Counted from the first letter of the stretch, positions 40,823-62,950 are shown. The stretch is DNA of 63,673 nucleotides from Elusimicrobia bacterium LH_S2 (GCA_023660015.1 JAGXOG010000001.1:1-63673); one strand, 5' to 3'. Program-made: numbers and translations. The notes: a model not told the origin generated them from the letters alone.

Positions 40823-40956
40823 TATAATATTAAACTCTCATTATGATATACGTAAATAGCAGTAAATATTTTCTTTTTCAAAGAAGTAAGCGCATCCTGA
40901 AAAGCAGAAAGAGTTTCTTGCTCAAAAAAATCAGTGGCAAAGGAAGAATAAAATTT

Positions 40957-42153: not shown

Positions 42154-42166
42154 GGAAAATACTGAA

Positions 42167-42787: not shown

Positions 42788-42788
42788 T

Positions 42789-43303: not shown

Positions 43304-43329
43304 AATTTTAAGAAAGGAAACAATAACTT

Positions 43330-43596: not shown

Positions 43597-43623
43597 AGAG
43601 ACAAAAAAAAGAGGTAATATAAT

Positions 43624-43929: not shown

Positions 43930-43965
43930 AATAAAAATTTTTAAAACCATAATCGGAGGTATTAA

Positions 43966-46706: not shown

Positions 46707-46715
46707 GTGATATAG

Positions 46716-47267
46716 ATGAAAAATGCAATTGGTTTAATTGAGTTAAACAGCATAGCCAAAGGTTTTGAAATCACGGATGCTCTTTTAAAGACAGCCGAAA
46801 GCCGGTTGGTGGAAGCTCATTCGGTCTGCCCGGGTAAATTTATCGTTCTTATTACCGGGACTACGGCCGATGTGCAAAGTTCGCTGCAGTCCGGGTTGGA
46901 TATTGCCGCCGATGCTTTTATTGATAAACTTATGATACCTAATATTCACCAGGATTTGGTATCGGCATTAAGAGGGATTACGGCAGTTTCCGAACTGGAA
47001 GCCCTGGGCATTATAGAAACATTTTCTGCGGCTTCGGCCATAATCGCAGCCGACGCGGCGGCAAAAAAAGCTATGGTTAAACTTATTGATATACGGCTGG
47101 CTAATGCTTTGGGAGGCAAAGCTTATCTTACCTTGACCGGGGAAGTAGGAGCAGTTCGCTCGGCGGTAAATGCAGGCAGCAACGCGGTAAAAGTTGCCGA
47201 AGGTATATTAATACGGCGAATTGTTATACCGCGCCCTCACAAGGATTTAAGAAAGAGCGTACTTTAG
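46716..47267 (+). CDS. BMC-T tandem-domain shell protein, PduT-like (Cys38 conserved)
   Basis: There are two Pfam00936-like halves (AIGLIELNSIAKG... and ALGIIETFSAASA...) in 183 aa. A Cys at residue 38 (HSVCPGKF, codon 46827-46829) occupies the position of the PduT 4Fe-4S ligand. Confidence 0.8.
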   Translation: MKNAIGLIELNSIAKGFEITDALLKTAESRLVEAHSVCPGKFIVLITGTTADVQSSLQSGLDIAADAFIDKLMIPNIHQDLVSALRGITAVSELEALGIIETFSAASAIIAADAAAKKAMVKLIDIRLANALGGKAYLTLTGEVGAVRSAVNAGSNAVKVAEGILIRRIVIPRPHKDLRKSVL

Positions 47268-47278
47268 GGAGAAAGATT

Positions 47279-47728
47279 ATGGATATTGTAATTGGTTCAG
47301 ATCACGGCGGCTTTAAATTAAAAGAAGAGATAAAAATATATCTTCAGGATAGAGGGTATAACATTGTTGATTTCGGCACTTATGAGGAAGAATCCTGCGA
47401 TTATCCCGATTATGCGCTTTTAGTAGCCCAAGCTATATTGGACGGGGAATATAAAAAAGGTATTTTATTTGACGGTACCGGGGGAGGAGTATGTCTTACT
47501 GCTAATAAAGTTAAGGGGGTGCGGGCGGTAACTGCTTACAACCGCTTGACCGGAAGCTATGCCTCCGAGCATGATGACTGTAATGTCTTATGTCTGGGAG
47601 GAAAGATGCTCGGGGAACTTGTCGCCAGGGATATAGTCGATGCCTGGTTGGATACTCCGTTCGGCGAGGGGCGCCACCAGAGAAGATTAAATAAGGTGGA
47701 GGATGTGGAAGAGAAATATTTTAAGTAA
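47279..47728 (+). CDS. RpiB/LacA/LacB-family sugar-phosphate isomerase, variant with Asp at the catalytic Cys position
   Basis: IGSDHGGFKLK...GILFDGTGGGVCLTANKVKGVRAV...GEGRHQRRL. The codon at 47471-47473 is GAC, where RpiB normally has the Cys of the ICGTG motif. Confidence 0.8.
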   Translation: MDIVIGSDHGGFKLKEEIKIYLQDRGYNIVDFGTYEEESCDYPDYALLVAQAILDGEYKKGILFDGTGGGVCLTANKVKGVRAVTAYNRLTGSYASEHDDCNVLCLGGKMLGELVARDIVDAWLDTPFGEGRHQRRLNKVEDVEEKYFK

Positions 47729-47789
47729 ACAACGATGAATAGAACTACAGTACCGGCGACATTATTATCTTAGTCTGCTTGTTATGAGG

Positions 47790-47810
47790 TGCCGGCATTT
47801 CCTGCCGGCA
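47790..47810 (+). other. Perfect 8-bp stem hairpin (TGCCGGCA-TTTCC-TGCCGGCA) in the spacer between the two rpiB paralogs
   Basis: It is read directly from the sequence. The stem is GC-rich, sits in an AT-rich 130-nt spacer and has no following U-run. Confidence 0.5.
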
Positions 47811-47858
47811 AATCTGAGAATAAATATTGTCAGTACTGTTTCTACGGAGAATTTTTAG

Positions 47859-48302
47859 ATGAAAATTGCAATTGGGTCAGATCACAGAGGATTTCAATTA
47901 AAAAGAGGACTTAAAAATTTGCTCAATAAGATAGGGCATGAGACAGAAGATATGGGGCCGGATACGGAGGATTCCGTAGATTATCCCATATATGCTAAAA
48001 AAGTCGCCGACAGCGTCTCGTCGGGAAAAACCGTCAAAGGGATAGTTATATGCGGAAGCGGTATCGGGGCATCTATAGCTTCAAATAAAGTTAAAGGTAT
48101 AAGGGCAACTCTTTCCCGCTCTATAAATGATGCTCAAATGGGAGTAAGGCATAATAATGCAAATATTCTTTGCCTGGGAGCGGATGTAACTTCCGGAAAA
48201 AAAGCCGCAAAGATAGTAAGAGAATTTTTAAAAGCAGAATTTGAAGGCGGTAGGCATCAAAGGAGAGTAGATATTATTACTAAAATAGAGGAAGGAAGAT
48301 GA
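47859..48302 (+). CDS. rpiB: Ribose-5-phosphate isomerase B (canonical Cys-type RpiB)
   Basis: IGSDHRGFQLK...GIVICGSGIGASIASNKVKGIRA...EGGRHQRRV. Confidence 0.85.
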   Translation: MKIAIGSDHRGFQLKRGLKNLLNKIGHETEDMGPDTEDSVDYPIYAKKVADSVSSGKTVKGIVICGSGIGASIASNKVKGIRATLSRSINDAQMGVRHNNANILCLGADVTSGKKAAKIVREFLKAEFEGGRHQRRVDIITKIEEGR

Positions 48303-48604
48303 AAGCGGCAAAAGTAGTCGGACGGGTTACGGCCACAACAAAGTATAAAACAATGGAAGGTAAAAAAATCCTTCTTTTAAGACCTCTATCTTGGAGAGAA
48401 GCCGCTCAGGCCTTCCGTTTAAAAGGTAAAGACCTTGCGCCGGAACCCAAAAAATCAATTATCGCTCTTGACTCGGTAGGGGCGGGAGCTTCGGAATATA
48501 TTTTTTATGTTTCTTCAAAAGAAGCTTGCCAGGCTTTTGACAATGACGCTATATGTAATTATGCTGTAATCGGGATACTTGACGGGGTGGATATAAAAGA
48601 GTGA
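48299..48604 (+). CDS. BMC-P pentameric vertex protein (EutN/CcmL family), paralog 2
   Basis: MKAAKVVGRVTATTKYKTMEGKKILLLRPL...ALDSVGAGASEYIFYVSS. The start overlaps the rpiB stop (ATGA). Confidence 0.85.
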   Translation: MKAAKVVGRVTATTKYKTMEGKKILLLRPLSWREAAQAFRLKGKDLAPEPKKSIIALDSVGAGASEYIFYVSSKEACQAFDNDAICNYAVIGILDGVDIKE

Positions 48605-48748
48605 GATAACCATGAATTATTACCAGCAGAAAAGAATTAAAATTAAATCTGTCGGCAGCATTTGTTTTCTCATTCTCGCTACGCTCCGAGGTCGCAAACA
48701 GCTGAATCCGGAGATGAATACCGTCGGTATATTTGGGAGCATTTGTAG

Positions 48749-49042
48749 ATGAAAGTTGCAAAAGTCATAGGTAATGCCTGGGCTACCAGAAAACATCCGA
48801 TTTTAGAGTCAAAAAAACTTTTAATAGTTGAGCCGGTAGACGAAACTACCGCCGTGCCCAACGGGGAACCCTTATTGGCCATTGATTCGGCCGGTGCAGG
48901 TGTGGGGGATACCGTACTGGTGCTGGACGAAGGGACCTCGTGCAGGCAGATAGTGGGTGTGGACCATGCTCCGACCCGGACTATAATAATCGGGATTGTA
49001 GATGAAACTTATAAAAAAGGCAAAAAGAGAAGTTATCATTAA
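48749..49042 (+). CDS. BMC-P pentameric vertex protein (EutN/CcmL family), paralog 3
   Basis: [30 protein letters not shown]...[19 protein letters not shown]. Confidence 0.85.
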
Positions 49043-49065
49043 TTAATAAAAATAAGGAGGAAAAA

Positions 49066-50472
49066 GTGCAGGAGAGTTATATAAAAAAAATTACTGCAGA
49101 AACAATGAACCGTCTGGAGAGTAAAAGAGGGGGTAAACGGGAACTCCTTTTGATATTTATGGGTGGAGACCGCGAAGTTGACGAATCGCTAAACCAGGTA
49201 AAATGTTTAAACGAAATGGGAATAAAATTTTCTGCTTACCTGACCGGTTCCGCTGACCGTATAATCGGCCGCAGCAGAGTTATGGCTGCCGGGGTAGAGA
49301 GAGTAATTGATGAAAGCGAAATATGGGACCGGGGGATACTTGACAAGTATGAAGCCATTATAATTCCGGTTTTGACCTTAAACGGAACGTCTAAGATAGC
49401 CAATATGGTAGCCGATAATCCTGCAAGTAACATAATCCTGCTTGCTTTAAGGCACGAGAAAAAGGTAATTATAGCCCGGGACTCGGTTATAAGCGGCGGA
49501 GGACCACAGCCGCCGGCTACCTCCGCGTTTATGAGAAATGTCAATGAGATGATAAATAAGATTAAAAATTTAGGAGCGACGGTAACAGTGGCTAAAAATT
49601 TAGCCCGACGGATTACGGAAGTATTAAATATATCTGCCCGGCCGGTTTCCGGAAACGCGGTCTCTGTAAACTCTTCGCCTCCTGCAGAAATGCCATGCGG
49701 GGGGGATGTATCTGCATGTGTTGAATGCGGTTTATGTGTGGTAAACCGCACTGAAGATGTTAAGAATATAGTTAATGCCGGGGCAAGTCGAGTATCTGCA
49801 AAGCAGGTAACGGAGGATATAGGAAATGATTTGGCCAAATATATAGATCATACGGATCTTAAGGCTGAGACTACCACAGAAGCTATAGGAAAACTTTGCG
49901 AAGAGGCAAAAGAATATCACTTTGCAACTGTCTGTGTAAATCCGGTTAACGTAAAGACCGCGGCCCAGCTTTTAAAAGGCAGCGGTGTCAGGGTCACTAC
50001 TGTTATAGGTTTCCCGCTGGGGGCCACTACTCCCACGGTAAAAGCATTGGAGGCAAGAGATGCAATAGCCAACGGTGCTGATGAGATAGATATGGTAATA
50101 AATGTCGGAGCCTTAAAAGGCGGAAATTACCGCCTGGTCGAGGACGATATAAAAGCCGTTCGGGAAGCTACAAGGGGTAAAGTCCTTAAAGTAATTTTAG
50201 AGACCTCTCTTTTAGATAACGACCAGATAGTGAAGGATTGTCAGATTTCAAAATCCGCAGGTGCTGATTTTGTTAAAACTTCTACGGGATTCGGTCCCGG
50301 TGGTGCAACCGAAGAAGATGTAAGCTTAATGAGAAAAACAGTAGGTCCGTCCATGGGGGTTAAAGCGGCGGGAGGCATACATTCGGAAGAAGAGGCCGAA
50401 GGCATGGTTAAGGCCGGGGCTTCCCGCATAGGCGCGTCGGCTTCGGTAGCCATAGTTACCGGCGGCGAATAG
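49066..50472 (+). CDS. deoC: Fusion protein: encapsulation-peptide-like helix + flavoprotein-like domain + CxxCxxC motif + deoxyribose-phosphate aldolase (DERA/DeoC)
   Basis: The C-terminal 230 aa or so read DHTDLK...ATVCVNP...IGFPLG...IDMVINVG...LKVILET...[10 protein letters not shown]...VKAAGGI, which is canonical DeoC. The N-terminus has [21 protein letters not shown] (flavoprotein-family-like) and [16 protein letters not shown]. Confidence 0.85.
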
Positions 50473-50550
50473 GAGAGCAATTATTAATAGGTATTTTTAG
50501 TTTATCGGAAATTTGGTAAAGATTGTAAAGAAGTATAAGGAGGAATAAAA

Positions 50551-50838
50551 ATGGCAGAAGCTAAACAAGCTTTAGGTATGATTGAAACTATAGGTCTTGT
50601 AGGTATGATTGAAGCCTCGGATGCTATGGTTAAGGCAGCAAAGGTTGACCTGGCCGGTTATGAGAAAATAGGCCAGGGTTATGTAACGACGATGGTTAGA
50701 GGTGAAGTAGGGGCAGTTAGGGCCGCGGTCGAGGCGGGTTCTACCGCAGCGCAAAAAGTCGGCGAATTAGTCAGCGTTCACGTGATTCCCAGGCCTCACG
50801 AAGATATAGAAAGTATTCTCCCTCAGGGTAACAAATAA
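50551..50838 (+). CDS. BMC-H shell protein (strong AAGGAGG RBS; likely the major shell hexamer)
   Basis: [28 protein letters not shown]...[14 protein letters not shown]. An AAGGAGG lies 7 nt upstream of the ATG. Confidence 0.9.
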
Positions 50839-50882: not shown

Positions 50883-50919
50883 GTAATCCTCCGATAAAGA
50901 GGGTTACCCGCGTTTTTTT
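50883..50919 (+). terminator. Candidate Rho-independent terminator closing the BMC locus
   Basis: A 9-bp stem GTAATCCTC/GAGGGTTAC (one G-U pair) has the loop CGATAAA. It is followed by CCGCG and a T7 run at 50913-50919. Confidence 0.5.
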
Positions 50920-50980
50920 ATATCTATGCGTTAATTTATTGATAAGATTCCAATACTGTGTTATTTATTAATTGATAGTT

Positions 50981-51234
50981 TGGTATCGTACCAAAAATAA
51001 TGGATATATGAAAAATAGTTTTGCAAAGAGTCCCTTTTTTTACTCCGGTTGTTCTTTTGCTTTCAGCACGCAGAAGTCACGCTTGAAACTCAAAAACTTA
51101 CTCGTCATATTAACGAGCTCAAAGAATTTGAGTTCCTTCATAGCGGAACCAGCATGACTTTTGACAGGAGAACAAAGTTGTTCAAAAGAAACTCTTTGCA
51201 TAAAAGCCAGCCTATTAACTTTGGGACAACGTCA
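50981..51234 (+). mobile_element. MITE-like repeat, type A, full-length copy flanked by 6-bp direct repeat ATAGTT
   Basis: It aligns end to end with 40957-41210. ATAGTT lies at 50975-50980 and 51235-51240. Confidence 0.8.
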
Positions 51235-51250: not shown

Positions 51251-51550
51251 ATGTTAAATAAGGGTATTTTAAAGTTAACAGCCGATACTTTTGTGGATAT
51301 TATCAGCGAAAGAAATATTTCGCCGAAAATTTTGGATAATAAAAGTTATAAATCCGGTTTTTTTCTGCAAAAACCGTTTTCAGTAAACCGCACAACATTA
51401 AAAAACCGCAAAAAACTTATAACCGAAAGATATTTGTTAGACCTTATTGCCGAGGGAAGAAAAAGGGTAAGTTTTAATACCGATGTAATAATTACTCCGG
51501 CGGCAAGGTTAATTATTGAGGAAGGAAAAATAAAGATAGATGAACAATAG
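51251..51550 (+). CDS. Small hypothetical protein; C-terminal motif shared with the TPI N-terminal extension
   Basis: ORF from the track. RKRVSFNTDVIITPAARLIIEEGKIKIDE resembles RKKVVAHSASLVSPYARETALRFGIEIVE in the tpiA extension. It overlaps the next gene by 11 nt. Confidence 0.5.
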   Translation: MLNKGILKLTADTFVDIISERNISPKILDNKSYKSGFFLQKPFSVNRTTLKNRKKLITERYLLDLIAEGRKRVSFNTDVIITPAARLIIEEGKIKIDEQ

Positions 51551-52139
51551 CAATGATATAACTTTAAAGGACTATATAGACAAAGTCGCATCCTCGGCCG
51601 GCACACCCGGCGGCGGGAATGTTATATCTACGGTAAATTCCCTTGCTGCTTCCCTGATGCTTATGTCATTAAGAATAGTAATATTAAAAAAAAATAGCGC
51701 TTCCAAATCCGGCCTTGAGCTTGAAAAAGAACTCATAGTTATTAAAGAGGAATCTCTCGAACTTGCCGAAGCCGACAGCCGGGAATTTAAAGAGGTAATG
51801 AAAAACTGGTCGGGAGGCGGTCATCGCCTGGAAGAATCGCTAAAAGGCGCTGCGATGGTTTCGCTGGAAATTGCCCGAAAAGCTGTTGGCCTTATAGAGC
51901 TCATAGAGGCCCAGGATTTAGACGTTTATAAAAATATTATTACAGATGTAACCATATCTTTCCGGCTTGCCGAATCAGCTTTTCACGGAGGTATTGCCAA
52001 TTGTATTATAAACGCCGGGGCCTTAAGTAAAGAAAAAAATAAAGCAGAAATACTTAAATTGCAAAACGATATTGAAAAAAGGTATGCCCGAATAGCGAAT
52101 AGACTTACCGGTAAGCTTGATTTAATAATTAAAAGATGA
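51540..52139 (+). CDS. Cyclodeaminase/cyclohydrolase-family protein (FTCD C-terminal-domain-like)
   Basis: YIDKVASSAGTPGGGNVISTVNSLAASLMLM is the hallmark ..PtPGGGs.aa..gal.aaL..MV motif of the FTCD_C family. The protein is all-helical and about 200 aa. Confidence 0.7.
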   Translation: MNNSNDITLKDYIDKVASSAGTPGGGNVISTVNSLAASLMLMSLRIVILKKNSASKSGLELEKELIVIKEESLELAEADSREFKEVMKNWSGGGHRLEESLKGAAMVSLEIARKAVGLIELIEAQDLDVYKNIITDVTISFRLAESAFHGGIANCIINAGALSKEKNKAEILKLQNDIEKRYARIANRLTGKLDLIIKR

Positions 52140-53191
52140 CTATAAATAAATGGCAGGTTGTTAATGACCCTTCCCCGAAGTGGGCAAAAAGAATCCGGGC
52201 CGATGTAGTTGCCGACTCCAAAGAGGAAATCTTGGAGGCAATGGAGAACTACCAATATCCGTTTGGGACGGTTTTAAAATCTAAAAATAAAGATTATAAT
52301 TACAGTTTCTTTATCTATGAAGGAGATGACGAAGGCGGAAAAGAGTTAAAACAGGTTTTATCCGGCAAAAAACCTGAAGTTTCGCCGGTTTCTGAGGAAA
52401 CAGAAGATGAATCTGAACCCGGCCACGAAGGAATAAAGCCTGTAGAAGAAACAAAATCTGGATCTGAATCGGTATCCGAAGAGCTTGAATCTGAAGAAAA
52501 ATCAAAGCCTGAGGTTTCCCCGGCGCCCGAAGAAATAAAACCTGAAATTGCTTCTCCCACAGAAGAAGAAAAAATTAAAAATGAAAGATTTGAGCAAGAA
52601 GCGGATATAGTAGAAAAGCCCGGCGATAAAGCTTCCGCAAATAAAGAAGAGCTTCCGGATAAGGGGGAGGATGGATCTGTAATCAAAACCCCGGCACCTG
52701 CCGAAGAAAGAAAGACTCATCAAGTTAAAGAAAAGGATGAAAAATCACCTGAAGATAATAAAGAACCCCGACCCGATGAAGTCGGTAAAAAGGTTTCCCG
52801 GGTTATAAAATTGGGAGTTATCTATTCGCTTCTTTATGAAGACGTAAAAATATCTACAAAACAGCAGCCCGAAGGCGAAGAACCCTTAACAGAAAAGGTC
52901 TATGATATATTTATAAATAATTTAAACGAGATGGTTGCTAAACAGAATATTAAAGTTCTTTTTAAACTTTCTTATCAGATAGGTTATGACGGCCTTCCTG
53001 ACAAAGAAAAGGTAATGGAAGAACAAAAAGAAGCTGATGTATTAGTTATAATTGACGAAAAAGAGGGGACTGAAAAGCTTGAAAATGTTTTTACCCCGGC
53101 GAATATTGCAGTTTATAGTATGCCGGTTAAAGATATCAATAAGGATTACGAATACCTGAATCTTGCTGCGGATATGGCTTTAAGGATTTAA
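52136..53191 (+). CDS. Acidic, low-complexity-linker protein sharing N- and C-terminal modules with the downstream DnaA-like protein
   Basis: ATGA overlap with the upstream gene. A central E/K/P/S-rich stretch of about 170 aa separates the ends. The end modules align with those of the 53193 protein (see findings). Confidence 0.65.
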   Translation: MTINKWQVVNDPSPKWAKRIRADVVADSKEEILEAMENYQYPFGTVLKSKNKDYNYSFFIYEGDDEGGKELKQVLSGKKPEVSPVSEETEDESEPGHEGIKPVEETKSGSESVSEELESEEKSKPEVSPAPEEIKPEIASPTEEEKIKNERFEQEADIVEKPGDKASANKEELPDKGEDGSVIKTPAPAEERKTHQVKEKDEKSPEDNKEPRPDEVGKKVSRVIKLGVIYSLLYEDVKISTKQQPEGEEPLTEKVYDIFINNLNEMVAKQNIKVLFKLSYQIGYDGLPDKEKVMEEQKEADVLVIIDEKEGTEKLENVFTPANIAVYSMPVKDINKDYEYLNLAADMALRI

Positions 53192-53192
53192 T

Positions 53193-55199
53193 ATGGCTTT
53201 AAAAAATTATGCTATAGAGCCGGCTCCCAGTCCAAAAGACAAGAACCGGTATAAGTTAAGCATAGCCGGTTCCGAAAAAGATGTAAATAAGCTGGTTAAA
53301 CAGTTAAGCAGTATAAGCAGCCGGCCTTTTCCTTCTCCGGACGATAAATACGGATGGTCTCTTTTTTTGTATAACTTAAAAGAAAGTGCTAAAAATAAAA
53401 TAACCAGCGAACTTGACAAGGTTATAAAAAATAAAAAAAATATCCCAGCCGAAAAACAGAAAAAATCGCGGGATGTTAAAAGTAAATCTACCTCCTCCGG
53501 TAATAATATTTTGTACAGGAGCGAGTTAAAAAAGGATTATACCTTTGATAAATTTATAGTGGGAGCCAATACGCGATTTACTTATGCGGCCTGTAAGGCC
53601 GTCGCAAACAAACCGGGCAAAAACTATAACCCGCTCTTTATATACGGCGGTGTAGGCCTTGGAAAAACCCATCTTATACAGGCGATAGGTCACCATGTAA
53701 AAGAAAATTTTTCGGAGATGAAAATAGAATATATTGCTTGCAGCAAATTTATAAATGAAGTAGTGGCGGCCATTGAAAAAGGAACTATAAATCTATTAAG
53801 AAATAAATTTAAAAATGTAGATTTACTCCTTATAGATGACATAGAGTTTCTTGAACAGTCAGAGTCAACCCAGGAAGAATTTTTTAACATATTTAATGAA
53901 ATGCACGAGGTAGAAAAGCAGATAGTCATTACATCGGATAAACCCCCCAAGAAACTGGTTACCCTTGAGGACCGGTTGAAATCCAGGTTTGAATGGGGGC
54001 TGACGACCGATGTGAAATCCCCCAATTTTGAAACCAGAAAGGCAATACTTAAGAAGAAAGCCGCGGAAGCTAACTTGGAGCTATCGGACCAGATTAATGA
54101 TTTTATTGCCGAAAGGCTGACTTCCAATATCAGAGAGCTAGAAGGAATAATAAACAGGATAGTCGCATACCAGGAACTTTCCGAAGACAATATACAGATA
54201 AATATAAGTATTGTTAAAAATATAATGCGAAATATCCTTCCTGAAGAAGAGAAGGAAGAAGAAAGCCGCCCGGAAAAAGAAAATTCAACAACCGGAGCCC
54301 GCCAGGGGGAAGGCCGAAAGGCGGCCCAATATCCCGGTTACAACCCGCCACCGCCGGTTCCCGGATACCAGCAACAGCAGTACGGAAATAACTGTCCCCG
54401 GTGCAGAAGTCCACTGCGATATATTCCCCAGTTTAAGAGGTGGTATTGCGATAACTGCGGCGTCTATACAGACCCGGCGCCCGGCGCGCCGCTTCCGCCG
54501 GGAAATTATACCGGAGATTATCCGCAGCCGTCTCCATCCCCGCCGCCCCCGCCTCCGTCAAAGTCTCAAACCGCTGCTTCAAGGCCGTGTCCCAACTGTA
54601 GCGCGGAGCTTAAATATATAGATGAATATGACCAGTATTACTGTCCAAACTGTAAAAAATACGAGCAGGAGTTACTCGAAGAAAATGACACTCCGCGAAA
54701 AACTAAGAGTAAAGAAAAGGCGCCGGAGCCGAAGAAGCCTTCTTCAAAGGATTCAAAAGACAAAGAAGAAAATATTGAAGATATTATAATAGGAGAGAAA
54801 AAAGAAGACACCAGGGTTATTAAGGCCGGTTATTTTATCGCCGAAGGAGACCAGAAATTAGCAATAGATATAGCAAACAGGTTAAGTAAGATTGCCCGGC
54901 GCAAAAATATAAAGTTCTATCTGAAAACTCATTTTGCTCATTTTTATCCTAAAAAAGCAAAGTTAAATTATGCGAAGTTTGCCCATATAACTAAAAATAA
55001 CAATGCAGACATTGTTTTATGTCTTGAACCGCCTTCTAATGGTAAGACTGCCCCCGAGGAGTTTAAAGAAGAATTAAGCGCCGCTCTGGATAAAGAAAAC
55101 CTTCCCTATGCCTTTTTGCCCCAGAAGAAGATGAAGGACAGCGATGCGTTAAATTTAATGCTGGATATAGCTATATGCGCAAAGAAAAGAACTAAATAA
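53193..55199 (+). CDS. DnaA-derived AAA+ ATPase lacking DnaA domains I and IV; Pro-rich region with two zinc ribbons and a novel C-terminal module
   Basis: The full DnaA domain III signature is present: YTFDKFIVGANTRFTYAA, NPLFIYGGVGLGKTHL (Walker A), LLLIDDIEFL (Walker B), QIVITSDKPP, RLKSRFEWGL and SNIRELEG. No ..PRQ.AMYL...GGRDHTTV domain IV is present. Instead it has CPRCRSPLRYIPQFKRWYCDNCGVY and CPNCSAELKYIDEYDQYYCPNCKKY. Confidence 0.8.
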   Translation: MALKNYAIEPAPSPKDKNRYKLSIAGSEKDVNKLVKQLSSISSRPFPSPDDKYGWSLFLYNLKESAKNKITSELDKVIKNKKNIPAEKQKKSRDVKSKSTSSGNNILYRSELKKDYTFDKFIVGANTRFTYAACKAVANKPGKNYNPLFIYGGVGLGKTHLIQAIGHHVKENFSEMKIEYIACSKFINEVVAAIEKGTINLLRNKFKNVDLLLIDDIEFLEQSESTQEEFFNIFNEMHEVEKQIVITSDKPPKKLVTLEDRLKSRFEWGLTTDVKSPNFETRKAILKKKAAEANLELSDQINDFIAERLTSNIRELEGIINRIVAYQELSEDNIQINISIVKNIMRNILPEEEKEEESRPEKENSTTGARQGEGRKAAQYPGYNPPPPVPGYQQQQYGNNCPRCRSPLRYIPQFKRWYCDNCGVYTDPAPGAPLPPGNYTGDYPQPSPSPPPPPPSKSQTAASRPCPNCSAELKYIDEYDQYYCPNCKKYEQELLEENDTPRKTKSKEKAPEPKKPSSKDSKDKEENIEDIIIGEKKEDTRVIKAGYFIAEGDQKLAIDIANRLSKIARRKNIKFYLKTHFAHFYPKKAKLNYAKFAHITKNNNADIVLCLEPPSNGKTAPEEFKEELSAALDKENLPYAFLPQKKMKDSDALNLMLDIAICAKKRTK

Positions 55200-55203
55200 A
55201 ATT

Positions 55204-57117
55204 ATGTTTTTAAGTTTTGGATATATCATCATTTTAACAGTTTCTCTGTTGCTGGCGCTAACCTCCAACGGAACTGCGATTTCAGCTGGGCTCTATCTTA
55301 TAGCGCTTATTACAGTAGTTTTGTTTATAAAAAGGCTGGTAATAAAAAGAGAAATTTATTTTACGCATCTGTGGCAGAATATATATAAGTCGGCATCTAC
55401 AAATATTAATTATTCTTCTGATTTCGGACTGAAGAGAAATTTAGGTCATATATTAAATGATTTATGCGAACTTACCTCTATAACCGGGGCCTGGGTTATA
55501 ATGAAAAATATAGATGGAAATTACAGAATTGAAGTTCAGCGGGGAAGAATTAATCTGTCATATAACCTTGGGATTAAGGATCTATCCGAGTATATTGAAG
55601 GTAATATTAAGGAGTTTGAAAAACCGCTTATCAAAGATCATTTGCCTCCGATGATTAACAGCAAAAAAAAAGGACTATGCCTTCATATACCGATAAGCCG
55701 GGGTAAACTTATACGGGGCGCAGTGACAGTAACTACAACTTCAAAGAGATATTTTAAAAAGCACAGAGTTAATAATTTTGTCAATATAGCAAAATTAATA
55801 GAGCAGCTCTACGAAAATGCCGACCGGAATAATCAACTTCAGAAAGTAGTCAGAAAAGTTAATGAGAAAGTCGATGTGGCCACCGATGAACTTACAAAAA
55901 CAAATATTAGGCTTATAGACAGGGTTAAAGAATTTAAATCTTTGTATGATATATCATTAAGGGTTATAAATGCCGAAACTACCGCCGAGGCGGTGAAGGT
56001 TATATTTAAAAAGATAAAAGTTATTCTGGGAGCTGAAAAGAGTATGTTTTTCGAAAATAGAGACGGAGAGTTCATCCTCAGATATGTAAGTGATGAAAAC
56101 TCTGAGAAAACTTTAAAAGAAAAAACTTTGCCTTTCTCGATCTTGCCCAAAAAAAAGGGAATAATATTAAACGACACTACAAAAGATAAAGATTTAAATC
56201 ATATAACCAAGCAGTATAATTTAAACTATATAATGATTGCTCCGGTAAGAGCCGGGGAAACAATAAAGGGGGTAATTATTACAGGTGTTAAAGAGGGAGG
56301 GGAATTTTCCGGGAGGGATGTTGAACTGCTGGAGATCTATTCAAACCAGTTAGGTGAATATATTGACAGGAAAGGTCTCATGGACAAGGTCATCAGGGAT
56401 AATAAAAGATTAAAAGAGCTAAATGAGGTTAAAGATAAATTTATATCCTTGATATCCCATGAGCTTAGAACACCGCTTACCAATATCAAGGGGTTTGGAG
56501 AACTGCTTTTAGGTGGCGATGTCGGTCAAGTTAATTCTGACCAGGAAAATTTTTTAAAGACGATTTTAAGGTCAACTTTCAAATTGGAAACTACAATTAA
56601 TAACATAATAGAAGTTACTGATTTTAAAAAACACGAAGTAAAGTTAGAAAAAGAAAGTGTAAAATGGGAAGAATTTATAAAAAGCAGTGTTGAAGAGTTT
56701 AGAGAAATTTTGGAGAAGAAGGAAATTAATTGTACAATAAAAGTTGATAGTTCAATAGGGATGTTATATGTTGACCGCAAGCGAGTAAAGAAAGTATTTG
56801 ATAACTTAATAAGCAATGCCGTAAAGTTTATGGGGAAGAAGGGGGATATAACCATAACTTCCGAGAAACAAGGGGAAAAAGTAAAGACGGTTATAAAGGA
56901 TACCGGCATAGGAATTAAAGAATCAATGAAAGATAAAGTCTTTGAGGGTTTTACCCGGGCTGATGAAACCCTAACCAGGAATTCCGACGGGCTGGGGCTG
57001 GGATTAACTTTAGTTAAATATATTATTGGAAACCATGGGGGCAATATTGATATAAAATCAACCCAAGGTAAAGGTACTGAGGTGATTTTTAGTTTACCGG
57101 CAGGGAGGTCAGCTTAA
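55204..57117 (+). CDS. Membrane sensor histidine kinase with GAF-like domains
   Basis: Two N-terminal TM helices. The H-box is ISLISHELRTPLTNIKG. N/G boxes are ..DNLISNAVKF.., DTGIGI and GLGLGLTLVKYII..HGG. Confidence 0.85.
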   Translation: MFLSFGYIIILTVSLLLALTSNGTAISAGLYLIALITVVLFIKRLVIKREIYFTHLWQNIYKSASTNINYSSDFGLKRNLGHILNDLCELTSITGAWVIMKNIDGNYRIEVQRGRINLSYNLGIKDLSEYIEGNIKEFEKPLIKDHLPPMINSKKKGLCLHIPISRGKLIRGAVTVTTTSKRYFKKHRVNNFVNIAKLIEQLYENADRNNQLQKVVRKVNEKVDVATDELTKTNIRLIDRVKEFKSLYDISLRVINAETTAEAVKVIFKKIKVILGAEKSMFFENRDGEFILRYVSDENSEKTLKEKTLPFSILPKKKGIILNDTTKDKDLNHITKQYNLNYIMIAPVRAGETIKGVIITGVKEGGEFSGRDVELLEIYSNQLGEYIDRKGLMDKVIRDNKRLKELNEVKDKFISLISHELRTPLTNIKGFGELLLGGDVGQVNSDQENFLKTILRSTFKLETTINNIIEVTDFKKHEVKLEKESVKWEEFIKSSVEEFREILEKKEINCTIKVDSSIGMLYVDRKRVKKVFDNLISNAVKFMGKKGDITITSEKQGEKVKTVIKDTGIGIKESMKDKVFEGFTRADETLTRNSDGLGLGLTLVKYIIGNHGGNIDIKSTQGKGTEVIFSLPAGRSA

Positions 57118-57590
57118 TGGCAGACAAACAGTATCGCCAAGATGCAAAGAAAAAGCGTCCGCCGCTTCTGCTTCTAATAGACCCGGACAGGGAGGAAGTC
57201 AAGCTAATAAAGAATTATTTTAAAAAGGAAAGTTTCCGGTGCGTAATAGCATATGATGGAATAAGGGGGATTGTGCATGCTCTTAACGATAAACCTGATC
57301 TTATAATTACCGAACTCGTAGTTCCCAGGTTAAGCGGATATGATATAATAAAAAGGCTGCAGATGGTTTCAACCCGGACAAAAAACATTCCGATTGTAAT
57401 ATTAACCGGAAAGACTATGGATGCGAAGTCAAAAAAAAGGCTGACTGATTTAGAAGAGAATGTCGTTGAATTTATGCCTAAACCGATAACCCGGGGGTCA
57501 TTTATGGTTAAGATACATAAGATATTGAAGACCGGAAAAACAGAGAGAAAAATACTTGACAGACATGAAAAGGAGAGGCGAAATGAATAA
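57117..57590 (+). CDS. Receiver-domain protein with Glu in place of the phospho-acceptor Asp (pseudo-receiver)
   Basis: It has the CheY-like layout LLLIDPD...PDLIITELVVPRLSGYD...IVILTGK...MPKPI. The acceptor position is E66 (GAA at 57312-57314). The start overlaps the kinase stop. Confidence 0.7.
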   Translation: MADKQYRQDAKKKRPPLLLLIDPDREEVKLIKNYFKKESFRCVIAYDGIRGIVHALNDKPDLIITELVVPRLSGYDIIKRLQMVSTRTKNIPIVILTGKTMDAKSKKRLTDLEENVVEFMPKPITRGSFMVKIHKILKTGKTERKILDRHEKERRNE

Positions 57591-57948
57591 AATAATGATA
57601 GTCGAAGATGACAACACTACCATAAAGCTTTTAAAATATTTACTGGGAAAAAACAACTATGAAGTAGCAGTATGTGAAAACGGAAAAATTGCCGTAGATT
57701 CAATTATGGACGAAGATCCCGATTTAATATTAATGGATATTATGATGCCGGAGATGGACGGACTTGAGGCGACAGAAAAAATAAGGGATATAAATAAATT
57801 TTCAGATACGCCTATAATAATGCTTTCCGCGCTGGGGCAGGAAATAGAAGTTGCTAAAGGATTAAAGGCCGGTGCAGACGGTTATGTAGTTAAACCTTTT
57901 GATACCCAATCCCTTGTAAGACAGATCAAAGAAAAGCTCTCTTCTTGA
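57583..57948 (+). CDS. Single-domain CheY-like response regulator
   Basis: KIMIVEDDNTTIKLL...DLILMDIMMPEMDGLEA...PIIMLSALG...GADGYVVKPF. An AAAGGAGAGG SD lies upstream of the ATG at 57583; the track ORF opens at 57556. Confidence 0.85.
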   Translation: MNKIMIVEDDNTTIKLLKYLLGKNNYEVAVCENGKIAVDSIMDEDPDLILMDIMMPEMDGLEATEKIRDINKFSDTPIIMLSALGQEIEVAKGLKAGADGYVVKPFDTQSLVRQIKEKLSS

Positions 57949-58035: not shown

Positions 58036-60072
58036 ATGGCTATTTTAAATTCCACAGATAATAGCGTAGTCAAAGACTATTCTACAGATGAGTTAATTCA
58101 AAAAGCAAAAGAGATGAGATCCTATAGCATGATATCGATTCATGCTGCCGGGTCGGGGCACCCGGGCGGCACTCTCTCCATTATGGATATTGCTGCGGCC
58201 CTATATTTGAAAGTTGCCTGCCATGACCCCAAAAACCCGGATTGGGAAGGGAGAGACCGTATATTCTGGTCTGCCGGGCATAAGGCGCCCGCCATTTATG
58301 CTGCGCTTGCCGCTTCCGGGTATTTTCCATTTGAAGAGACGGTAAAATTAAGAAAATTGGGGTCGGGTTTTGAGGGCCATCCGAACAGGCTAAGACTTCA
58401 GGGTATAGAGCTTTCCAGTGGTTCCCTGGGGCAGGGGCTGGGGGTGGCAGTAGGTTCGGCTCTGGACGCTAAACTAGAAAAAAGAAAGAATCGCGTATAT
58501 TGCATTCTGGGGGATGGGGAACATAACGAAGGGTCCGTCTGGGAATCGATAATGAGCGCGGCCAACTATAATCTTAATAATCTTATAGCCATAGTTGATT
58601 TAAACGGGCTCCAGATAGACGGACCTACTGATGATGTTATGTGCCTTGGTTCGCTTAAGGAAAAATATGAATCTTTCGGATGGGAAGTGCTGGAGATAGA
58701 CGGGCATGATATGGAAGCCATAGTAGAGGCCTTCAGTAAAGCTTCTGAAATTAAGGATAAACCGACAGCAATTATCGCCCACACCGTTAAGGGCAAGGGA
58801 GTATCCTATGCAGAGAACGTTGTCGGTTATCACGGCGCGCCGCCTAAAGACGGGCGCAGCGGAGAGGAATCTCTGGATAAAGCATTGGATGATATAGGTG
58901 ACCCTCAGTTTACGAAAGAAAAAGTTGACAGCCTTCTTAAAATTGCCTCGGATTACCAGAAAATCGTTGACAAAAAAATGGTGGAAAAACTTCCCAAATT
59001 TTCGAAATCATACTGGTGGAACGACAGTGAAGATATGAAAGTTGATATGGTTCCCACCCGGAACGGGTTTGGCGATGCTCTGGCGGAAATAGGCTCGGAT
59101 AAAAATATAGTTGCACACGGCGCGGATATAACCAGTTCAATAAGAATGAATAAATTTTATGCGGATTTTCCTGAAAGGAAAAACCGTTTTTTCAGTATCG
59201 GTATCGCAGAAGCTAATATGACTTTAATAGCTTCGGGTTTTGCCCGGGAAGGCAAATCCGCTTTTGTCGGTTCTTACGGGGTATTTGCCACCGGCAGGGC
59301 ATGGGATCAGTTAAGAACCACGGCCTGCTATAATAAGTTCAATATAAATATAGCTGATGCTCACGGGGGTATTTCAGTTGGTCCCGACGGAGCAACCCAT
59401 CAAGCGCTGGAGGAAATCGCGGTAATAAATTATCTGCCCAATATAGTGCTTACCGTCCCCTGTGACAGCAATGAAACATATAAGTCCACAAAAGCGATTA
59501 CTTATGAGGAAGGCCCTTCGGTTGTCCGTTACGCCCGGACAGCGACTCCGATAGTTACGGATAAAGAGACCCCGTATGAATTCGGGATTACTAATATAAT
59601 ACGATTTAGGGGGAGAAAGGCAAAATTTCCCGATGCATTCGAGTGGAAACTGGGGACAGAATACGAGAGTGAAGGCGAAGCTGTTTCTTTAATTGCCTGC
59701 GGCCCGATGCTTCCCGAAGCAATGCGCGCGGCATGGATATTAAAAGAAGAGTACGGTATAGAAAGCCGCATACTGGACGTGCATACGGTCAAGCCTTTAG
59801 ATATGGAAACAATAAATAAGGCCGCTGCTGATACCAATGCGGTAATAACCTGTGAAGAGCACCAGGTAGGCGGTTTTGGCAATATTGTCGCCGGAGCAAT
59901 AAATACTTCTAAAAATATTACTTCTCCTTTGGTCATGGACATGGTGGGAGTACAGGACATATTCGGCGAGAGCGGAGCTCCCTGGGAATTGATGATTGAT
60001 TTTAAGCTGGTTGCTGAAAATATAGTTGAAAAAGCTAAAAAATTGTTCGATAAAAAAAGCCAGATGCTTTAA
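58036..60072 (+). CDS. tkt: Transketolase (fused N- and C-terminal halves)
   Basis: The TPP-binding segments are GSGHPGGTLSIMDI, GSLGQGLGVAVG and GDGEHNEGSVWE. Pyrimidine-binding and C-terminal domains are present. Confidence 0.85.
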   Translation: MAILNSTDNSVVKDYSTDELIQKAKEMRSYSMISIHAAGSGHPGGTLSIMDIAAALYLKVACHDPKNPDWEGRDRIFWSAGHKAPAIYAALAASGYFPFEETVKLRKLGSGFEGHPNRLRLQGIELSSGSLGQGLGVAVGSALDAKLEKRKNRVYCILGDGEHNEGSVWESIMSAANYNLNNLIAIVDLNGLQIDGPTDDVMCLGSLKEKYESFGWEVLEIDGHDMEAIVEAFSKASEIKDKPTAIIAHTVKGKGVSYAENVVGYHGAPPKDGRSGEESLDKALDDIGDPQFTKEKVDSLLKIASDYQKIVDKKMVEKLPKFSKSYWWNDSEDMKVDMVPTRNGFGDALAEIGSDKNIVAHGADITSSIRMNKFYADFPERKNRFFSIGIAEANMTLIASGFAREGKSAFVGSYGVFATGRAWDQLRTTACYNKFNINIADAHGGISVGPDGATHQALEEIAVINYLPNIVLTVPCDSNETYKSTKAITYEEGPSVVRYARTATPIVTDKETPYEFGITNIIRFRGRKAKFPDAFEWKLGTEYESEGEAVSLIACGPMLPEAMRAAWILKEEYGIESRILDVHTVKPLDMETINKAAADTNAVITCEEHQVGGFGNIVAGAINTSKNITSPLVMDMVGVQDIFGESGAPWELMIDFKLVAENIVEKAKKLFDKKSQML

Positions 60073-61775
60073 TGCTTGATGATTTCATAAAAGTTTCTTC
60101 CGGTAAAAAACCGGCCGATCTGTTGTTAAAAGGCGGTAGGATGGTAAATGTCCTGTCCGGAGAAATTATAAAGACCGATGTTGCCGTATATAAAGGGAAG
60201 ATATGCGGCTTCGGAAAATATAAGTCAAAAGAGAGCATCGATATAAAAAACAGGTATATCCTTCCCGGATATATTGACGGGCATATACATATAGAAAGTT
60301 CTCTTCTTACCGTCTCTGAATTTGCCAACGCAGTAGTTCCCCTGGGGACTACATCTGTTGTCGCCGAACCCCACGAGATAGTAAATGTTCTCGGCCTGGC
60401 GGGAATAAAGTATATGTTGGAGTCTGCAAAATACCAGCCGTTGGAAGTCTATTTTATGATGCCTTCCTGCGTTCCGGCAACTAACTTGGAAACTTCGGGG
60501 GCAGTTATAACCGCAGGAGATATCTTGCCGTATCTTTCCGAAAAATGGGTGGTCGGCTTGGGGGAGATGATGAATTTTACCGGTGTTATAAACGGTAACA
60601 AAGAAGTACTCGATAAGATAAAGATGGTATCAACAAAAAAAATAGACGGCCATGCTCCCGGGCTTTCGGGTAAGGCATTGTCGGCTTATATAAGCGCCGG
60701 AATAAGCAGCGATCATGAATCAACTACTTATGAAGAAGCGGCTGAAAAATTAAGGAAAGGCATGCATATTATGATAAGAGAAGGCACGGCGACAAAAAAT
60801 CTCGATGCTATTGTTGATCTTGTTACTCCGGCAAATTCATCTAATTTTTCTTTTGTAAGCGATGACCGATCTCCGGAAGACCTCATAAATCAGGGACATA
60901 TAAATTATATAGTAAAAAGGGCGGTCAAATCCGGGCTTGACCCGGTAATAGCCATTAAGTTAGCTACTTTAAATACCGCTCGTTACTTTAACCTGAAAGG
61001 CAAAGGAGCCATAGCTCCGGGTTATGATGCAGATTTGCAGGTATTGAAGTCATTCCGCTCACCGGCTCCGGTTATGGTCTTTAAAAAAGGAAAAATAGTT
61101 GCCGAAAACGGTAAATTAAAGAAACGTCGGGTAAAACCAAAAGATATATATATCCGGGGGTCGGTAAATGTTAAATGGCTGGTTGAAGATGATTTTAAAA
61201 TTAAGGCTAGGGGGAGCAAAGTTAAGACTATTAAGCTTGTTCCCTCCCAGATAATTACGGAGTATAAAAAGTATAAGACACCGGTATCCGGCGGGATGCT
61301 GGTAAGCGACACTTCCCGGGATATGTTAAAAATATGCGTAGTAGAAAGACATCGGGCCAGCGGCGATATAGGTATTGGAATGCTTAAGGGGATGGGACTT
61401 AAGTCCGGCGCCATAGCAACTTCTGTTGCCCATGATTCCCATAACATAGTATCAACCGGCGTAAATGACAAAGATATAATGGCGGCGGTTATAGAGGTCG
61501 TTAAAATGGGAGGGGGGCTGGCGGTAGTTAAAGATGAAAAAGTTATGGAAAGCCTTGATTTGCCCATAGCCGGGCTTATGAGCGAATTGCCCATAGAGCA
61601 AGTTAAGGAAAAACTTATAAAACTTAAAAAGGCCGCAAAAGATCTCGGGGCAATTCCCGATGACCCTTTCTTTACTCTTTCTTTTCTCTGTTTGCCTGTA
61701 ATTCCACAGTTGAAGATTACCAATAAAGGCCTGGTGGATGTAGATAAATTTAAGATTGTGGGGTTATTTAACTGA
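60072..61775 (+). CDS. ade: Adenine deaminase
   Basis: ILPGYIDGHIHIESS...AEPHEI...IDGHAPG...SDHES are the amidohydrolase motifs of the Ade family. Length is about 570 aa. Confidence 0.85.
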   Translation: MLDDFIKVSSGKKPADLLLKGGRMVNVLSGEIIKTDVAVYKGKICGFGKYKSKESIDIKNRYILPGYIDGHIHIESSLLTVSEFANAVVPLGTTSVVAEPHEIVNVLGLAGIKYMLESAKYQPLEVYFMMPSCVPATNLETSGAVITAGDILPYLSEKWVVGLGEMMNFTGVINGNKEVLDKIKMVSTKKIDGHAPGLSGKALSAYISAGISSDHESTTYEEAAEKLRKGMHIMIREGTATKNLDAIVDLVTPANSSNFSFVSDDRSPEDLINQGHINYIVKRAVKSGLDPVIAIKLATLNTARYFNLKGKGAIAPGYDADLQVLKSFRSPAPVMVFKKGKIVAENGKLKKRRVKPKDIYIRGSVNVKWLVEDDFKIKARGSKVKTIKLVPSQIITEYKKYKTPVSGGMLVSDTSRDMLKICVVERHRASGDIGIGMLKGMGLKSGAIATSVAHDSHNIVSTGVNDKDIMAAVIEVVKMGGGLAVVKDEKVMESLDLPIAGLMSELPIEQVKEKLIKLKKAAKDLGAIPDDPFFTLSFLCLPVIPQLKITNKGLVDVDKFKIVGLFN

Positions 61776-62950
61776 TGGCAAAGAAGGTAATACTTATTGT
61801 TTTAGATAGTGTCGGCGTCGGAGAACTACCCGACGCAGGCGATTTCGGTGACGAAGGGGCAGATACACTTTCACATATCTCTGAAAGAATTGAAAATTTC
61901 CGGCTTCCTAATCTATGTTCAATGGGATTAGGTAAAATATCCGATATAGGCTGTAAGGAAGATAAAATATCCGGTGCTTTCGGAAAGATGGCCGAGGCAT
62001 CCCCCAGTAAGGATACCACTACCGGGCACTGGGAAATCTGCGGCCGGCCCCTCGAGTTTAGTTTTCCCACATATCCTGATGGTTTCCCGGAAAGAATAAT
62101 AAAAAAATTTGAAGAAAAGATAGGAAGGAAAACAATTGGCAATTATCCCATGTCGGGTACGGAAATCCTTAAGCAGCTGGGACAAAAACATCTTGAAACG
62201 GGCAATCCTATAGTATATACTTCTGCGGATTCGGTATTTCAGGTGGCTGCTCACCAGGATATTATATCTCTTGATGAGTTGTACAAAATGTGCCTTAAGG
62301 CCAGGGAGATACTTAGAGGTAAAGATAATGTATCCAGAGTTATTGCCCGTCCGTTTAAGGGAAGTTCCGGAAAATTCAAGAGAAACGAGCCGGGCCGCAA
62401 GGACTTTTCTCTGGAGCCTCCAGGTGAGACTTTGCTGGATAAGCTTAAAGAGACAGGCATGGCGGTAGTGGGAATAGGAAAGATTGGCGATATTTTTGCC
62501 CACCGGGGTCTTACTGAAGAAATAAAGACCGATAATAATTTTGACGGCATCGATAAAATAATTAAAGCAATTAAGGAGTATAACCAAAAAACCGGCCTTA
62601 TATTTGTAAACCTGGTCGAGTTTGACTCTGTTTTCGGACATAGAAGAAATGTAGAAGGTTACGCTTCGGCTCTTGTTGAATTCGACAGTCGTCTCAACGA
62701 GATAAAAGAAGCGATGGAGACCGAAGATATTCTAATAATTACGGCTGACCACGGCTGTGATCCGACATTTGAACGTCACACAGATCACACCCGGGAATAT
62801 GTTTCGCTGTTAGTGGGTGGTAACCAGGTAAAAGAAGAAGTGGATCTCGGCATACGGAAAACTTTTGCGGACTGCGGTCAGACAATCGCGGATATATTAG
62901 GTATAGAAAAACTCCGGGCCGGAGTTAGCTTTATAAAAGAGATACTATAA
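61775..62950 (+). CDS. deoB: Phosphopentomutase
   Basis: VILIVLDSVGVGELPDA..FGDEGADTL..., ..TTGHWE.., ..ITADHGCDPT.. are canonical DeoB metal-site and active-site motifs. Confidence 0.9.
   Translation: MAKKVILIVLDSVGVGELPDAGDFGDEGADTLSHISERIENFRLPNLCSMGLGKISDIGCKEDKISGAFGKMAEASPSKDTTTGHWEICGRPLEFSFPTYPDGFPERIIKKFEEKIGRKTIGNYPMSGTEILKQLGQKHLETGNPIVYTSADSVFQVAAHQDIISLDELYKMCLKAREILRGKDNVSRVIARPFKGSSGKFKRNEPGRKDFSLEPPGETLLDKLKETGMAVVGIGKIGDIFAHRGLTEEIKTDNNFDGIDKIIKAIKEYNQKTGLIFVNLVEFDSVFGHRRNVEGYASALVEFDSRLNEIKEAMETEDILIITADHGCDPTFERHTDHTREYVSLLVGGNQVKEEVDLGIRKTFADCGQTIADILGIEKLRAGVSFIKEIL

Follow-up and report, generated by a model that had tools for sequence, protein, structure and literature searches.

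Hda, a protein of about 230-250 aa, has no domain other than AAA+ and uses a motif at its N terminus to bind the sliding clamp, and McdA, the ATPase of the McdA/McdB pair, is a ParA/MinD-type protein that uses the nucleoid. In the replication initiator DnaA, Lys222 is essential and touches the backbone phosphate of single-stranded DNA (ssDNA) (PMC10721633). Of the bacterial microcompartment (BMC) operons of the sugar-phosphate type (SPU), the characterised SPU6 operon of Chloroflexi encodes a GntR-like regulator (PMC11585597). Here we describe a run of seven genes (g1-g7) at positions 51251-57948 of a 63,673-nt stretch of DNA from Elusimicrobia bacterium LH_S2 (GCA_023660015.1 JAGXOG010000001.1:1-63673), the whole of which was analysed and is referred to below as the window. 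The fourth gene, g4, belongs to a family in which the DnaA ATPase core is joined to two undescribed domains that replace both DNA-binding parts, and it is very probably not a replication gene. The family brings together a DnaA-family AAA+ paralog, a two-component pair and two new domains, and g3-g7 form a lineage-specific signalling module within a supercluster for nucleoside and deoxyribose-phosphate catabolism, found in Elusimicrobiota-type genomes only. Full-text literature searches returned no description of the g4 family, and a keyword search of the text of two SPU papers found no mention of DnaA (PMC8217296, PMC11585597).

The ATPase core and end domains of g4

The g4 product (53193-55199, 668 aa) matches the Pfam family Bac_DnaA (PF00308) at 2.9e-65 through a DnaA domain III (AAA+) at 53511-54251 and has no Pfam match to domain IV (PF08299) or to DnaA_N (domain I, PF11638), in keeping with the preliminary description of a DnaA-type AAA+ protein stripped of its DNA-binding domain. 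PF08299 is also absent from every one of the family members P0001-P0099; canonical DnaA matches do have it. Against the DnaA equivalog model TIGR00362, g4 scores 339.5 bits and so misses the cut-off of 343.9, covering model positions 57-345 of 437. An alignment of 22 g4 homologs shows a fixed layout, in which an N-terminal domain (NTD) of ~77 aa is followed by a variable linker, domain III, a variable Pro/Glu-rich linker and a C-terminal domain (CTD) of ~125 aa. The CTD is present in all of P0001-P0099 and in P0102, and the NTD in nearly all; neither of these end domains matches a Pfam family. In the window, the Pro-rich linker also holds two CxxC...CxxC zinc ribbons (54393-54458 and 54588-54653), a clade-specific insertion: both ribbons occur only in the clade of the window, one occurs in a clade of 617-aa proteins, and the remainder of the family has none.

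The ATPase core of g4 is far closer to that of DnaA than to Hda, with 265 bits against Bacillus subtilis DnaA (8BTG) and 53 bits against Hda; its score against the Hda model TIGR03420 (118.3 bits) is below the cut-off of 194.8. We compared individual residues between 100 family members and 20 canonical DnaAs, using B. subtilis numbering. The Walker A lysine (97/100), the Walker B DD pair (99/100), R260 and R264 of the Arg-finger region (both 100/100), E228 (99/100) and R202 (94/100) are each found in 20/20 canonical proteins, and positions 190 and 193, which are Ile in 20/20 canonical DnaAs, are Ile or Val in 97 and 96 of the 100 members, respectively. The sensor II motif NIRELEG is invariant across the 22-sequence alignment. 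The ssDNA-contacting Lys222 of canonical DnaA (20/20) is lysine in none of the family, the position being filled by Ala in 53 members, Ser in 43, Gly in 2 and Val in 1, with a gap in 1. On the strength of this residue conservation, the change at Lys222 and the loss of domain IV, g4 should have kept ATP binding, ATP hydrolysis and head-to-tail stacking, and appears from its sequence to have lost both DnaA modes of DNA engagement. The clamp-binding motif, searched for with a regular expression of the QL[SP]LPL type, matches a single one of 99 members, at an internal position.

The NTD (53193-53423) was modelled by AlphaFold2 (AF2) with a pLDDT of 83 and has the predicted order beta-beta-alpha-beta-alpha, plus isolated bridge residues. 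A fold search with this model found no significant neighbour (best E 0.1), and identity with DnaA domain I is ruled out by profile comparison, in which hhalign gives the NTD a probability of 0.3% against canonical domain I. Searched against an index of 5.8 billion proteins, the NTD profile had no match, probably owing to a word-filter limit. The domain is fused to GAF-GGDEF proteins at three loci (L036:5365-6798, L043:4214-5659 and L044:5177-6601), and it is therefore a portable module on cyclic di-GMP signalling proteins. In many family members the NTD is followed by an amphipathic helix (DLEEILEKVAG, LSGVLAELNMVLEGL).

The CTD (54813-55193; AF2 pLDDT 85) has a Rossmann-like (beta-alpha)x4 fold, ends in YLNLxLDI, and in its model lies nearest to the Argonaute MID domain, lumazine synthase and PTS IIB, with TM scores of about 0.6. 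It is a rare domain: an exhaustive HMMER scan of 1.84 billion representatives recovered only 102 clusters, in every case with the domain at the C terminus. These clusters include DnaA-like proteins, proteins without an AAA+ domain (AAA-less) that consist of NTD, linker and CTD, and diverged AAA+ forms of up to 1115 aa. Two candidate origins for the CTD, as a degenerate receiver and as a relative of RpiB, were rejected at hhalign probabilities of 0.1% and 0.2%, respectively. Its sole match to a TIR domain is to that of TLR2, with E=0.006 over 72 columns. A TIR assignment was likewise rejected, since this weak match is backed neither by Pfam, where no TIR family is among the 14 families matched by any family member, nor by the fold search, in which the three folds named above rank highest. 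The column expected to hold the TIR catalytic glutamate, that of the WxxxE region, is Lys in the CTD profile consensus.

Despite this architecture, NCBI and JGI records label members of the family (P0002, P0006, P0012, P0066 and others) as 'chromosomal replication initiator protein DnaA'. The location of g4 is not that of an initiator gene at oriC, an arrangement raised in the preliminary description. The window contains 2 DnaA-box matches, with 5.0 expected by chance and none near g4, and its cumulative GC skew rises monotonically, without a switch. Query segments from DnaA domain I and domain IV found no tblastn match in any of the 62 loci described below, where the identified neighbours are all catabolic or signalling genes, dnaN not having been specifically searched for. 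In Ca. Endomicrobium trichonymphae, the genuine dnaA has been reported as a pseudogene (PMC5174739).

Recurrence and make-up of the module

Six neighbourhoods of the family were obtained from exact-protein look-ups, and a scan of species-representative genomes with a CTD motif added 57 loci; the contig of P0200 proved too short to show any context. The resulting set has 62 members, of which the window is one and 57 come from species-representative genomes, and marker genes were mapped on it by tblastn. Fractions out of 46 refer to those loci whose upstream sequence extends for 4 kb or more, and fractions out of 51 to those with at least 4 kb downstream. Nearly all loci come from records titled Elusimicrobia, Elusimicrobiota or Endomicrobia, and a few carry other bin labels. 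The gene order, whose recurrence the preliminary description had asked about, is found again in this set, with strong co-localisation of the genes. Genes for TIM, RpiB, DeoC or PTAC lie upstream in 46/46 loci; transketolase, PNP, phosphopentomutase, adenine deaminase or PHO4/PhoU genes lie downstream in 39/51; and all marker matches are co-directional with the ATPase gene. Its other question, whether the genes always adjoin a microcompartment locus, is answered in the negative. Shell genes are present in only 15/46 loci, and because pathway genes are present in all 46, the association is with the catabolic pathway and not with the shell. Where shell genes are missing, TIM has 249-251 aa and DeoC 214-227 aa, short forms that are neither extended nor fused as they are in the window. 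In many loci, mostly shell-less, genes for a secreted tetratricopeptide repeat (TPR) protein and for a lipoprotein also stand together between those for RpiB and DeoC (L004:5265-6298, L005:8327-9285 and about 15 others), an odd presence inside a cytoplasmic catabolic operon and one unrelated to g1 or g2.

The two-component part of the module is formed by g5 and g7. In g5 (55204-57117, 637 aa), GAF, HisKA and HATPase_c domains follow a hydrophobic N-terminal segment of ~45 aa, which we read as two putative membrane helices that would leave the GAF region in the cytoplasm. Of the marked genes downstream, the closest is a GAF kinase with a homologous sensor region, as detected by tblastn, in 34 loci and a receiver in 6. 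The kinase gene lies 4 nt from the ATPase gene in the window and overlaps it in L002 and L065. Canonical and single-domain, the CheY-like receiver (REC) g7 (57583-57948, 121 aa counted from ATG) has orthologs with intact Asp and Lys in at least 25 loci. The protein between them, g6 (57117-57590, 157 aa), is a pseudo-receiver, a weak REC match in which the Asp that accepts the phosphate is replaced by Glu (IITELVV), was detected in the window only and is lineage-specific. HisKA with HATPase_c and the receiver Asp with Lys, which together mark a two-component pair, are thus found in g5 and g7 and are not completed in g6.

The protein encoded directly upstream of g4, g3 (52136-53191, 351 aa), matches no Pfam or NCBIfam family. 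By hhalign, its N-terminal part (52136-52363) matches the g4 NTD profile with a probability of 92% (E 5e-7) and its C-terminal part (52868-53185) the g4 CTD profile with a probability of 96% (E 3.8e-9), so that both end domains confirm the earlier view of g3 as a disordered acidic paralog of the g4 end modules. Between them lies an acidic disordered linker (52364-52867) with 27% Asp+Glu and an ERFE sequence at residue 150. In at least 16 loci the DnaA-like gene is immediately preceded by one or two such g3-like paralogs. In their linkers the motif [IVLMF]E[RKQTH]F[EGDSA] occurs 19 times, as against about 1 expected in shuffles; examples of this IERF(G/E)E type are seen in L055:6279-7382, L054:6853-8277, P0211 and g3 of the window. 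We regard the linker motif and the amphipathic helix that follows the NTD as candidate docking motifs. Divergent relatives of g4 keep the pattern: P0209 is preceded by an SPU locus with a g1-like gene after it, and P0206 overlaps a kinase gene. At the end of an SPU locus, an AAA-less NTD-linker-CTD protein (P0175, L066) stands alone between a REC gene and a GAF kinase gene; because this protein fills the slot of the ATPase, the end domains, the kinase and the receiver would seem to form the core of the module.

The first two genes of the run have other histories. The product of g1 (51251-51550, 99 aa) has a C-terminal VIITPAARLIIEEGKIKI motif and no Pfam match, has no relative with a solved structure, and matches the C terminus of TIGR02536 (eut_hyp) weakly (6.5e-4); its motif may resemble the N terminus of EutQ. 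Homologs of g1 were detected only in loci with BMC-H genes, directly after the last BMC-H gene, and these include the distant L064 and L066. Small proteins ending in (I/V)I(S/T)P(L/A)A...I.I occupy this place at L064:8619-8870, at L066:9268-9579 and in the window. We conclude that g1 is an accessory gene that closes the SPU microcompartment locus. The second protein, g2 (51540-52139, 199 aa), is a probable helical protein like those of the FTCD_C (cyclodeaminase/cyclohydrolase) family, matching PF04961 at 89.1 bits and 3.9e-25 (gathering threshold 24.5) and scoring 47.7 bits against the FchA equivalog (cut-off 275). It is restricted to the clade of the window (9 loci), where it fills the slot held elsewhere by PilT. 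A search for its relatives yielded five close ones besides g2, two of them named Elusimicrobiota/Elusimicrobia, and no functional lead. Of the marked genes upstream of the ATPase gene, the closest is PilT/PilU in 24 loci, g2 in a further 9 and a g3-like gene in another 6; the PilT/PilU proteins are bona fide by TIGR01420 (438.9 bits, cut-off 319.1), as at L004:8855-9928.

All seven open reading frames of the run lie closely packed on the + strand, and their coordinates were reproduced together with all six junctions, which from g1 to g7 measure -11, -4 (ATGA), +1, +4, -1 (TAATG) and -8 nt. A public collection holds called genes with the exact protein sequences of all seven. Pfam and NCBIfam scans of the members also bear out the FTCD_C-like g2, the DnaA-type g4, the kinase g5 and the receivers g6 and g7. 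What does not stand is the treatment of the seven genes as one fixed unit, given that g1 follows the last BMC-H gene, g2 belongs to one clade, g3 is present in some loci and g6 in the window alone. The run is a composite of a microcompartment accessory gene (g1), a clade-specific addition (g2) and the g3-g7 module.

The run begins, as first described, after a BMC terminator and a copy of a miniature inverted-repeat transposable element (MITE). A terminator-like hairpin followed by a T-run lies on the + strand at 50883-50907, downstream of the last BMC-H gene (50551-50838), and a 97-nt stretch around it is the sole intergenic part kept in the closest relative, L007. Next comes a dispersed intergenic repeat of 255 nt (50979-51233, no strand assigned) that is 90% identical to 40955-41209. 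One of the two 255-nt copies sits just 5' of g1 and the other just 5' of the microcompartment operon; counting fragments, the intergenic regions of the window contain at least six in all, with partial ones near 23576, 24111, 30850-31228 and 43065-43291. The repeat was not found in any related locus, and because it is missing from all of them we consider it MITE-like and no conserved leader; a role as a common regulatory leader is ruled out on the same ground. No Rfam family matches anywhere in the window, the repeat included. At the other end of the run, prediction gave no + strand terminator for the 87 nt that separate g7 from the transketolase gene at 58036, and therefore the transcript may extend past g7.

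The surrounding genes complete the pathway context, those at 35876-40822, 41251-50838 and 58036-62950 being on the + strand. The SPU microcompartment locus (41251-50838) contains the DeoC, RpiB, AldDH and BMC-H/T/P genes that identify it as such, and comprises an N-extended TIM, PTAC, BMC-H, BMC-P, AldDH, an RnfC-like/PduS-like protein, BMC-T, two RpiB, a Flavoprotein-DeoC fusion and BMC-H. Co-directional transketolase, adenine deaminase and phosphopentomutase genes follow g7 (58036-62950). Directly 5' of the microcompartment operon lie genes for a 5'-nucleotidase, the nucleoside transporter NupC and a GAF-GGDEF diguanylate cyclase (35876-40822); GAF-GGDEF genes turn up in about 9 loci, one of them the window (39728-40822). 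The giant protein of 4398 aa encoded at 118-13314, at the start of the window, combines lamin-tail domains with two PLD-like domains and one Ig-like domain. It may be a nuclease or phosphodiesterase of very large size that acts outside the cell, as would suit an island for DNA scavenging. The region as a whole reads as an island for scavenging extracellular nucleic acid and nucleosides, in agreement with the function proposed for SPU compartments (PMC8217296, PMC11585597). The window also shares a block of DprA, TopA and XerC-like recombinase genes (18421-22559) with L064 (15260-19583); the block lies just downstream of the DnaA-like gene in L064 and 30 kb upstream of it in the window. Among the genes scanned inside the clusters, none matched Trans_reg_C, GntR or DeoR. 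PADLOC returned generic P-loop and REC noise alone, and we rejected a defence system.

Possible roles of the module

We tentatively favour a reading, possible though well short of established, in which g4 is an ATP/ADP-gated assembling adaptor of a kinase-regulator pathway that tunes nucleoside and deoxyribose catabolism. We infer the interactions, ligand and output of the module as follows. The DnaA domain III ATPase would be re-used as a nucleotide-state switch, and g4 in its ATP form would self-assemble head-to-tail through the kept Arg-finger interface, clustering the NTD and CTD end domains. AAA-less paralogs such as g3 and the NTD-bearing GAF-GGDEF cyclases could join this assembly, because the paralogs share both end domains with g4 and the cyclases share its NTD. 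The assembly might then modulate the membrane-anchored, cytoplasm-sensing GAF kinase g5, which would phosphorylate the single-domain receiver g7. A phosphorylated metabolite of the pathway, or a nucleotide, may bind at the Rossmann-like CTD, and the output would tune nucleoside and deoxyribose breakdown, and the microcompartment where one is present, according to energy, nucleotide or intermediate status. This adaptor reading is suggested by the domain layout, the kept ATPase residues, the pathway context, the linkage to the kinase, the NTD fusions and the substitution in L066, as well as by the lack of a classical regulator among the genes scanned in the clusters and the resemblance of the CTD to Rossmann-like folds that bind phospho-ligands (MID, PTS IIB). 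Of the preliminary proposal of a sensing, assembly or positioning system for the adjacent microcompartment, the sensing part is the most plausible.

Several observations weigh against an adaptor role. In about 12 loci whose downstream flank is long enough, neither a kinase nor a receiver gene stands beside the ATPase gene, so that in these the kinase is either dispensable or encoded elsewhere in the genome. The module contains no DNA-binding output domain, and the fold matches of the CTD, at the TM scores given above, are generic. Its most constant neighbours are the enzymes TIM, RpiB and DeoC, which a direct role with enzymes would explain equally well. The conserved order may also be partly inherited and not selected, because the family is confined to one phylum.

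The constancy of TIM, RpiB and DeoC (46/46) is also the first argument for a scaffold, in which ATP-driven g4 filaments and the paralogs with disordered linkers nucleate or organise the pathway enzymes. The long Glu- or Pro-rich linkers of the paralogs, with their enriched motif (19 occurrences against 1 expected), and the amphipathic helix after the NTD would suit such a role. We nevertheless think it unlikely, because TIM and DeoC have no docking extensions in shell-less loci and a purely structural role leaves the tight linkage to the kinase and receiver unexplained. Its narrower form, that the module organises or positions the cargo core of the microcompartment where a shell exists, is the assembly or positioning idea of the preliminary description. 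It draws on the place of the module in shell loci, directly after the last BMC-H gene and g1, and is doubtful to the same degree, with shell genes in just 15/46 loci and no ParA-type partner. The analogy first drawn with McdA/McdB fails at the same point, as the ParA-type ATPase that defines that system is absent and the ATPases here are a DnaA-clade AAA+ protein and, in other loci, PilT. The PilT gene itself raises the prospect that the module is part of a system of type IV pili and extracellular-DNA foraging in which g4 senses or handles imported nucleic acid or nucleotides. In 24 loci the gene immediately before the g4 homolog is a bona fide PilT/PilU gene, GAF-GGDEF cyclases are present in about 9, the window also encodes the 4398-aa PLD-like/lamin-tail protein, the 5'-nucleotidase and NupC, and most of the nucleobase-capture residues of B. 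subtilis DnaA are kept (E183, I190, I193, R202, E228). The essential ssDNA-phosphate lysine is lost in 100/100 members, however, and we hold DNA foraging to be rather unlikely. Control of PilT-driven pilus retraction by the kinase and CheY-like receiver has similarly slim prospects, with PilT missing from the clade of the window, where g2 is found instead, and no other pilus or competence gene adjoining the module; DprA lies 33 kb away in the window.

Two further explanations would return g4 to replication. It could act as a decoy or modulator of DnaA, co-assembling with the genuine initiator through the Arg-finger interface and capping or poisoning its filament. The nearness of domain III to DnaA (265 bits against 53 for Hda, and 339.5 bits to TIGR00362) and the invariant interface arginines speak for this, and the loss of domain IV and of the ssDNA lysine is what would be expected of a subunit that joins the filament and cannot engage DNA. 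We judge it improbable, as none of the loci links the family to a replication gene (dnaN not having been specifically searched for), the clamp-binding motif is found in 1/99 members, and an AAA-less paralog can fill the same slot in L066, which suggests that the core function resides in the end domains. Coupling of replication initiation to deoxynucleoside catabolism by such a decoy, an Hda-like outcome reached by a different mechanism, is no more probable. Were it true, the kinase and receiver together with a metabolite-binding CTD would control the capping, and initiation would be throttled while deoxynucleosides are burned, an equally long shot. Finally, g4 could be the real initiator of its genome at oriC, as its naming by NCBI and JGI implies, or the neighbourhood could be an inherited order without a functional link, to which shared ancestry within a one-phylum family does contribute. 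Either is highly improbable. The missing domains I and IV, the score under the TIGR00362 equivalog cut-off, the domain I and IV queries unmatched in 62 loci, the deficit of DnaA boxes (2 against 5 expected, none near the gene) and the monotonic GC skew argue against an initiator, and mere inheritance sits poorly with a linkage that survives divergence of the CTD to about 25% identity and many inserted or swapped neighbour genes.

Relation to described systems

The family shows an initiator ATPase core re-used outside replication and joined to two undescribed domains, with AAA-less paralogs beside it. The module is firmly tied to a pathway for scavenging nucleic acids, which about one third of the lineages house in a microcompartment, and it offers a concrete candidate for regulating or organising sugar-phosphate microcompartment pathways where the scanned clusters show no classical regulator. 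It also provides a tractable system for asking what the nucleotide switch of DnaA can do when detached from DNA. In practical terms, the DnaA label carried by the family would mislead origin prediction and inferences about replication in Elusimicrobiota.

Despite the marked likeness of g4 to DnaA, with a domain III about 50% identical that keeps Walker A and B, DRLKSRFEWGL, NIRELEG and most residues of the initiator-specific motif, the two differ in that g4 lacks domains I and IV, has Ala or Ser in place of Lys222, carries a new NTD and CTD, and is encoded in a catabolic cluster. Hda/HdaA and g4 are both DnaA-derived AAA+ proteins without domain IV, but g4, at 668 aa, has extra domains, has the clamp motif in only 1/99 members of its family, and stands in a metabolic context. 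The presence of a kinase and a receiver beside a separate nucleotide-binding protein may be likened, as an analogy only, to KaiC-SasA, PII-NtrB and PhoU/PstB-PhoR; there is no homology to the accessory proteins of these systems, and here the receiver has no output domain and the partner is DnaA-derived and has AAA-less paralogs. With McdA/McdB the module has in common an ATPase and a partner with a disordered region, encoded beside a microcompartment locus in some genomes, but its ATPase is an initiator-clade AAA+ protein without a DNA-binding domain and two thirds of its loci are shell-less. The GntR-like regulator of SPU6 is likewise encoded within an SPU microcompartment operon. GntR-like proteins are one-component helix-turn-helix transcription factors, whereas the scanned clusters of Elusimicrobiota carry a module of g4, kinase and receiver.

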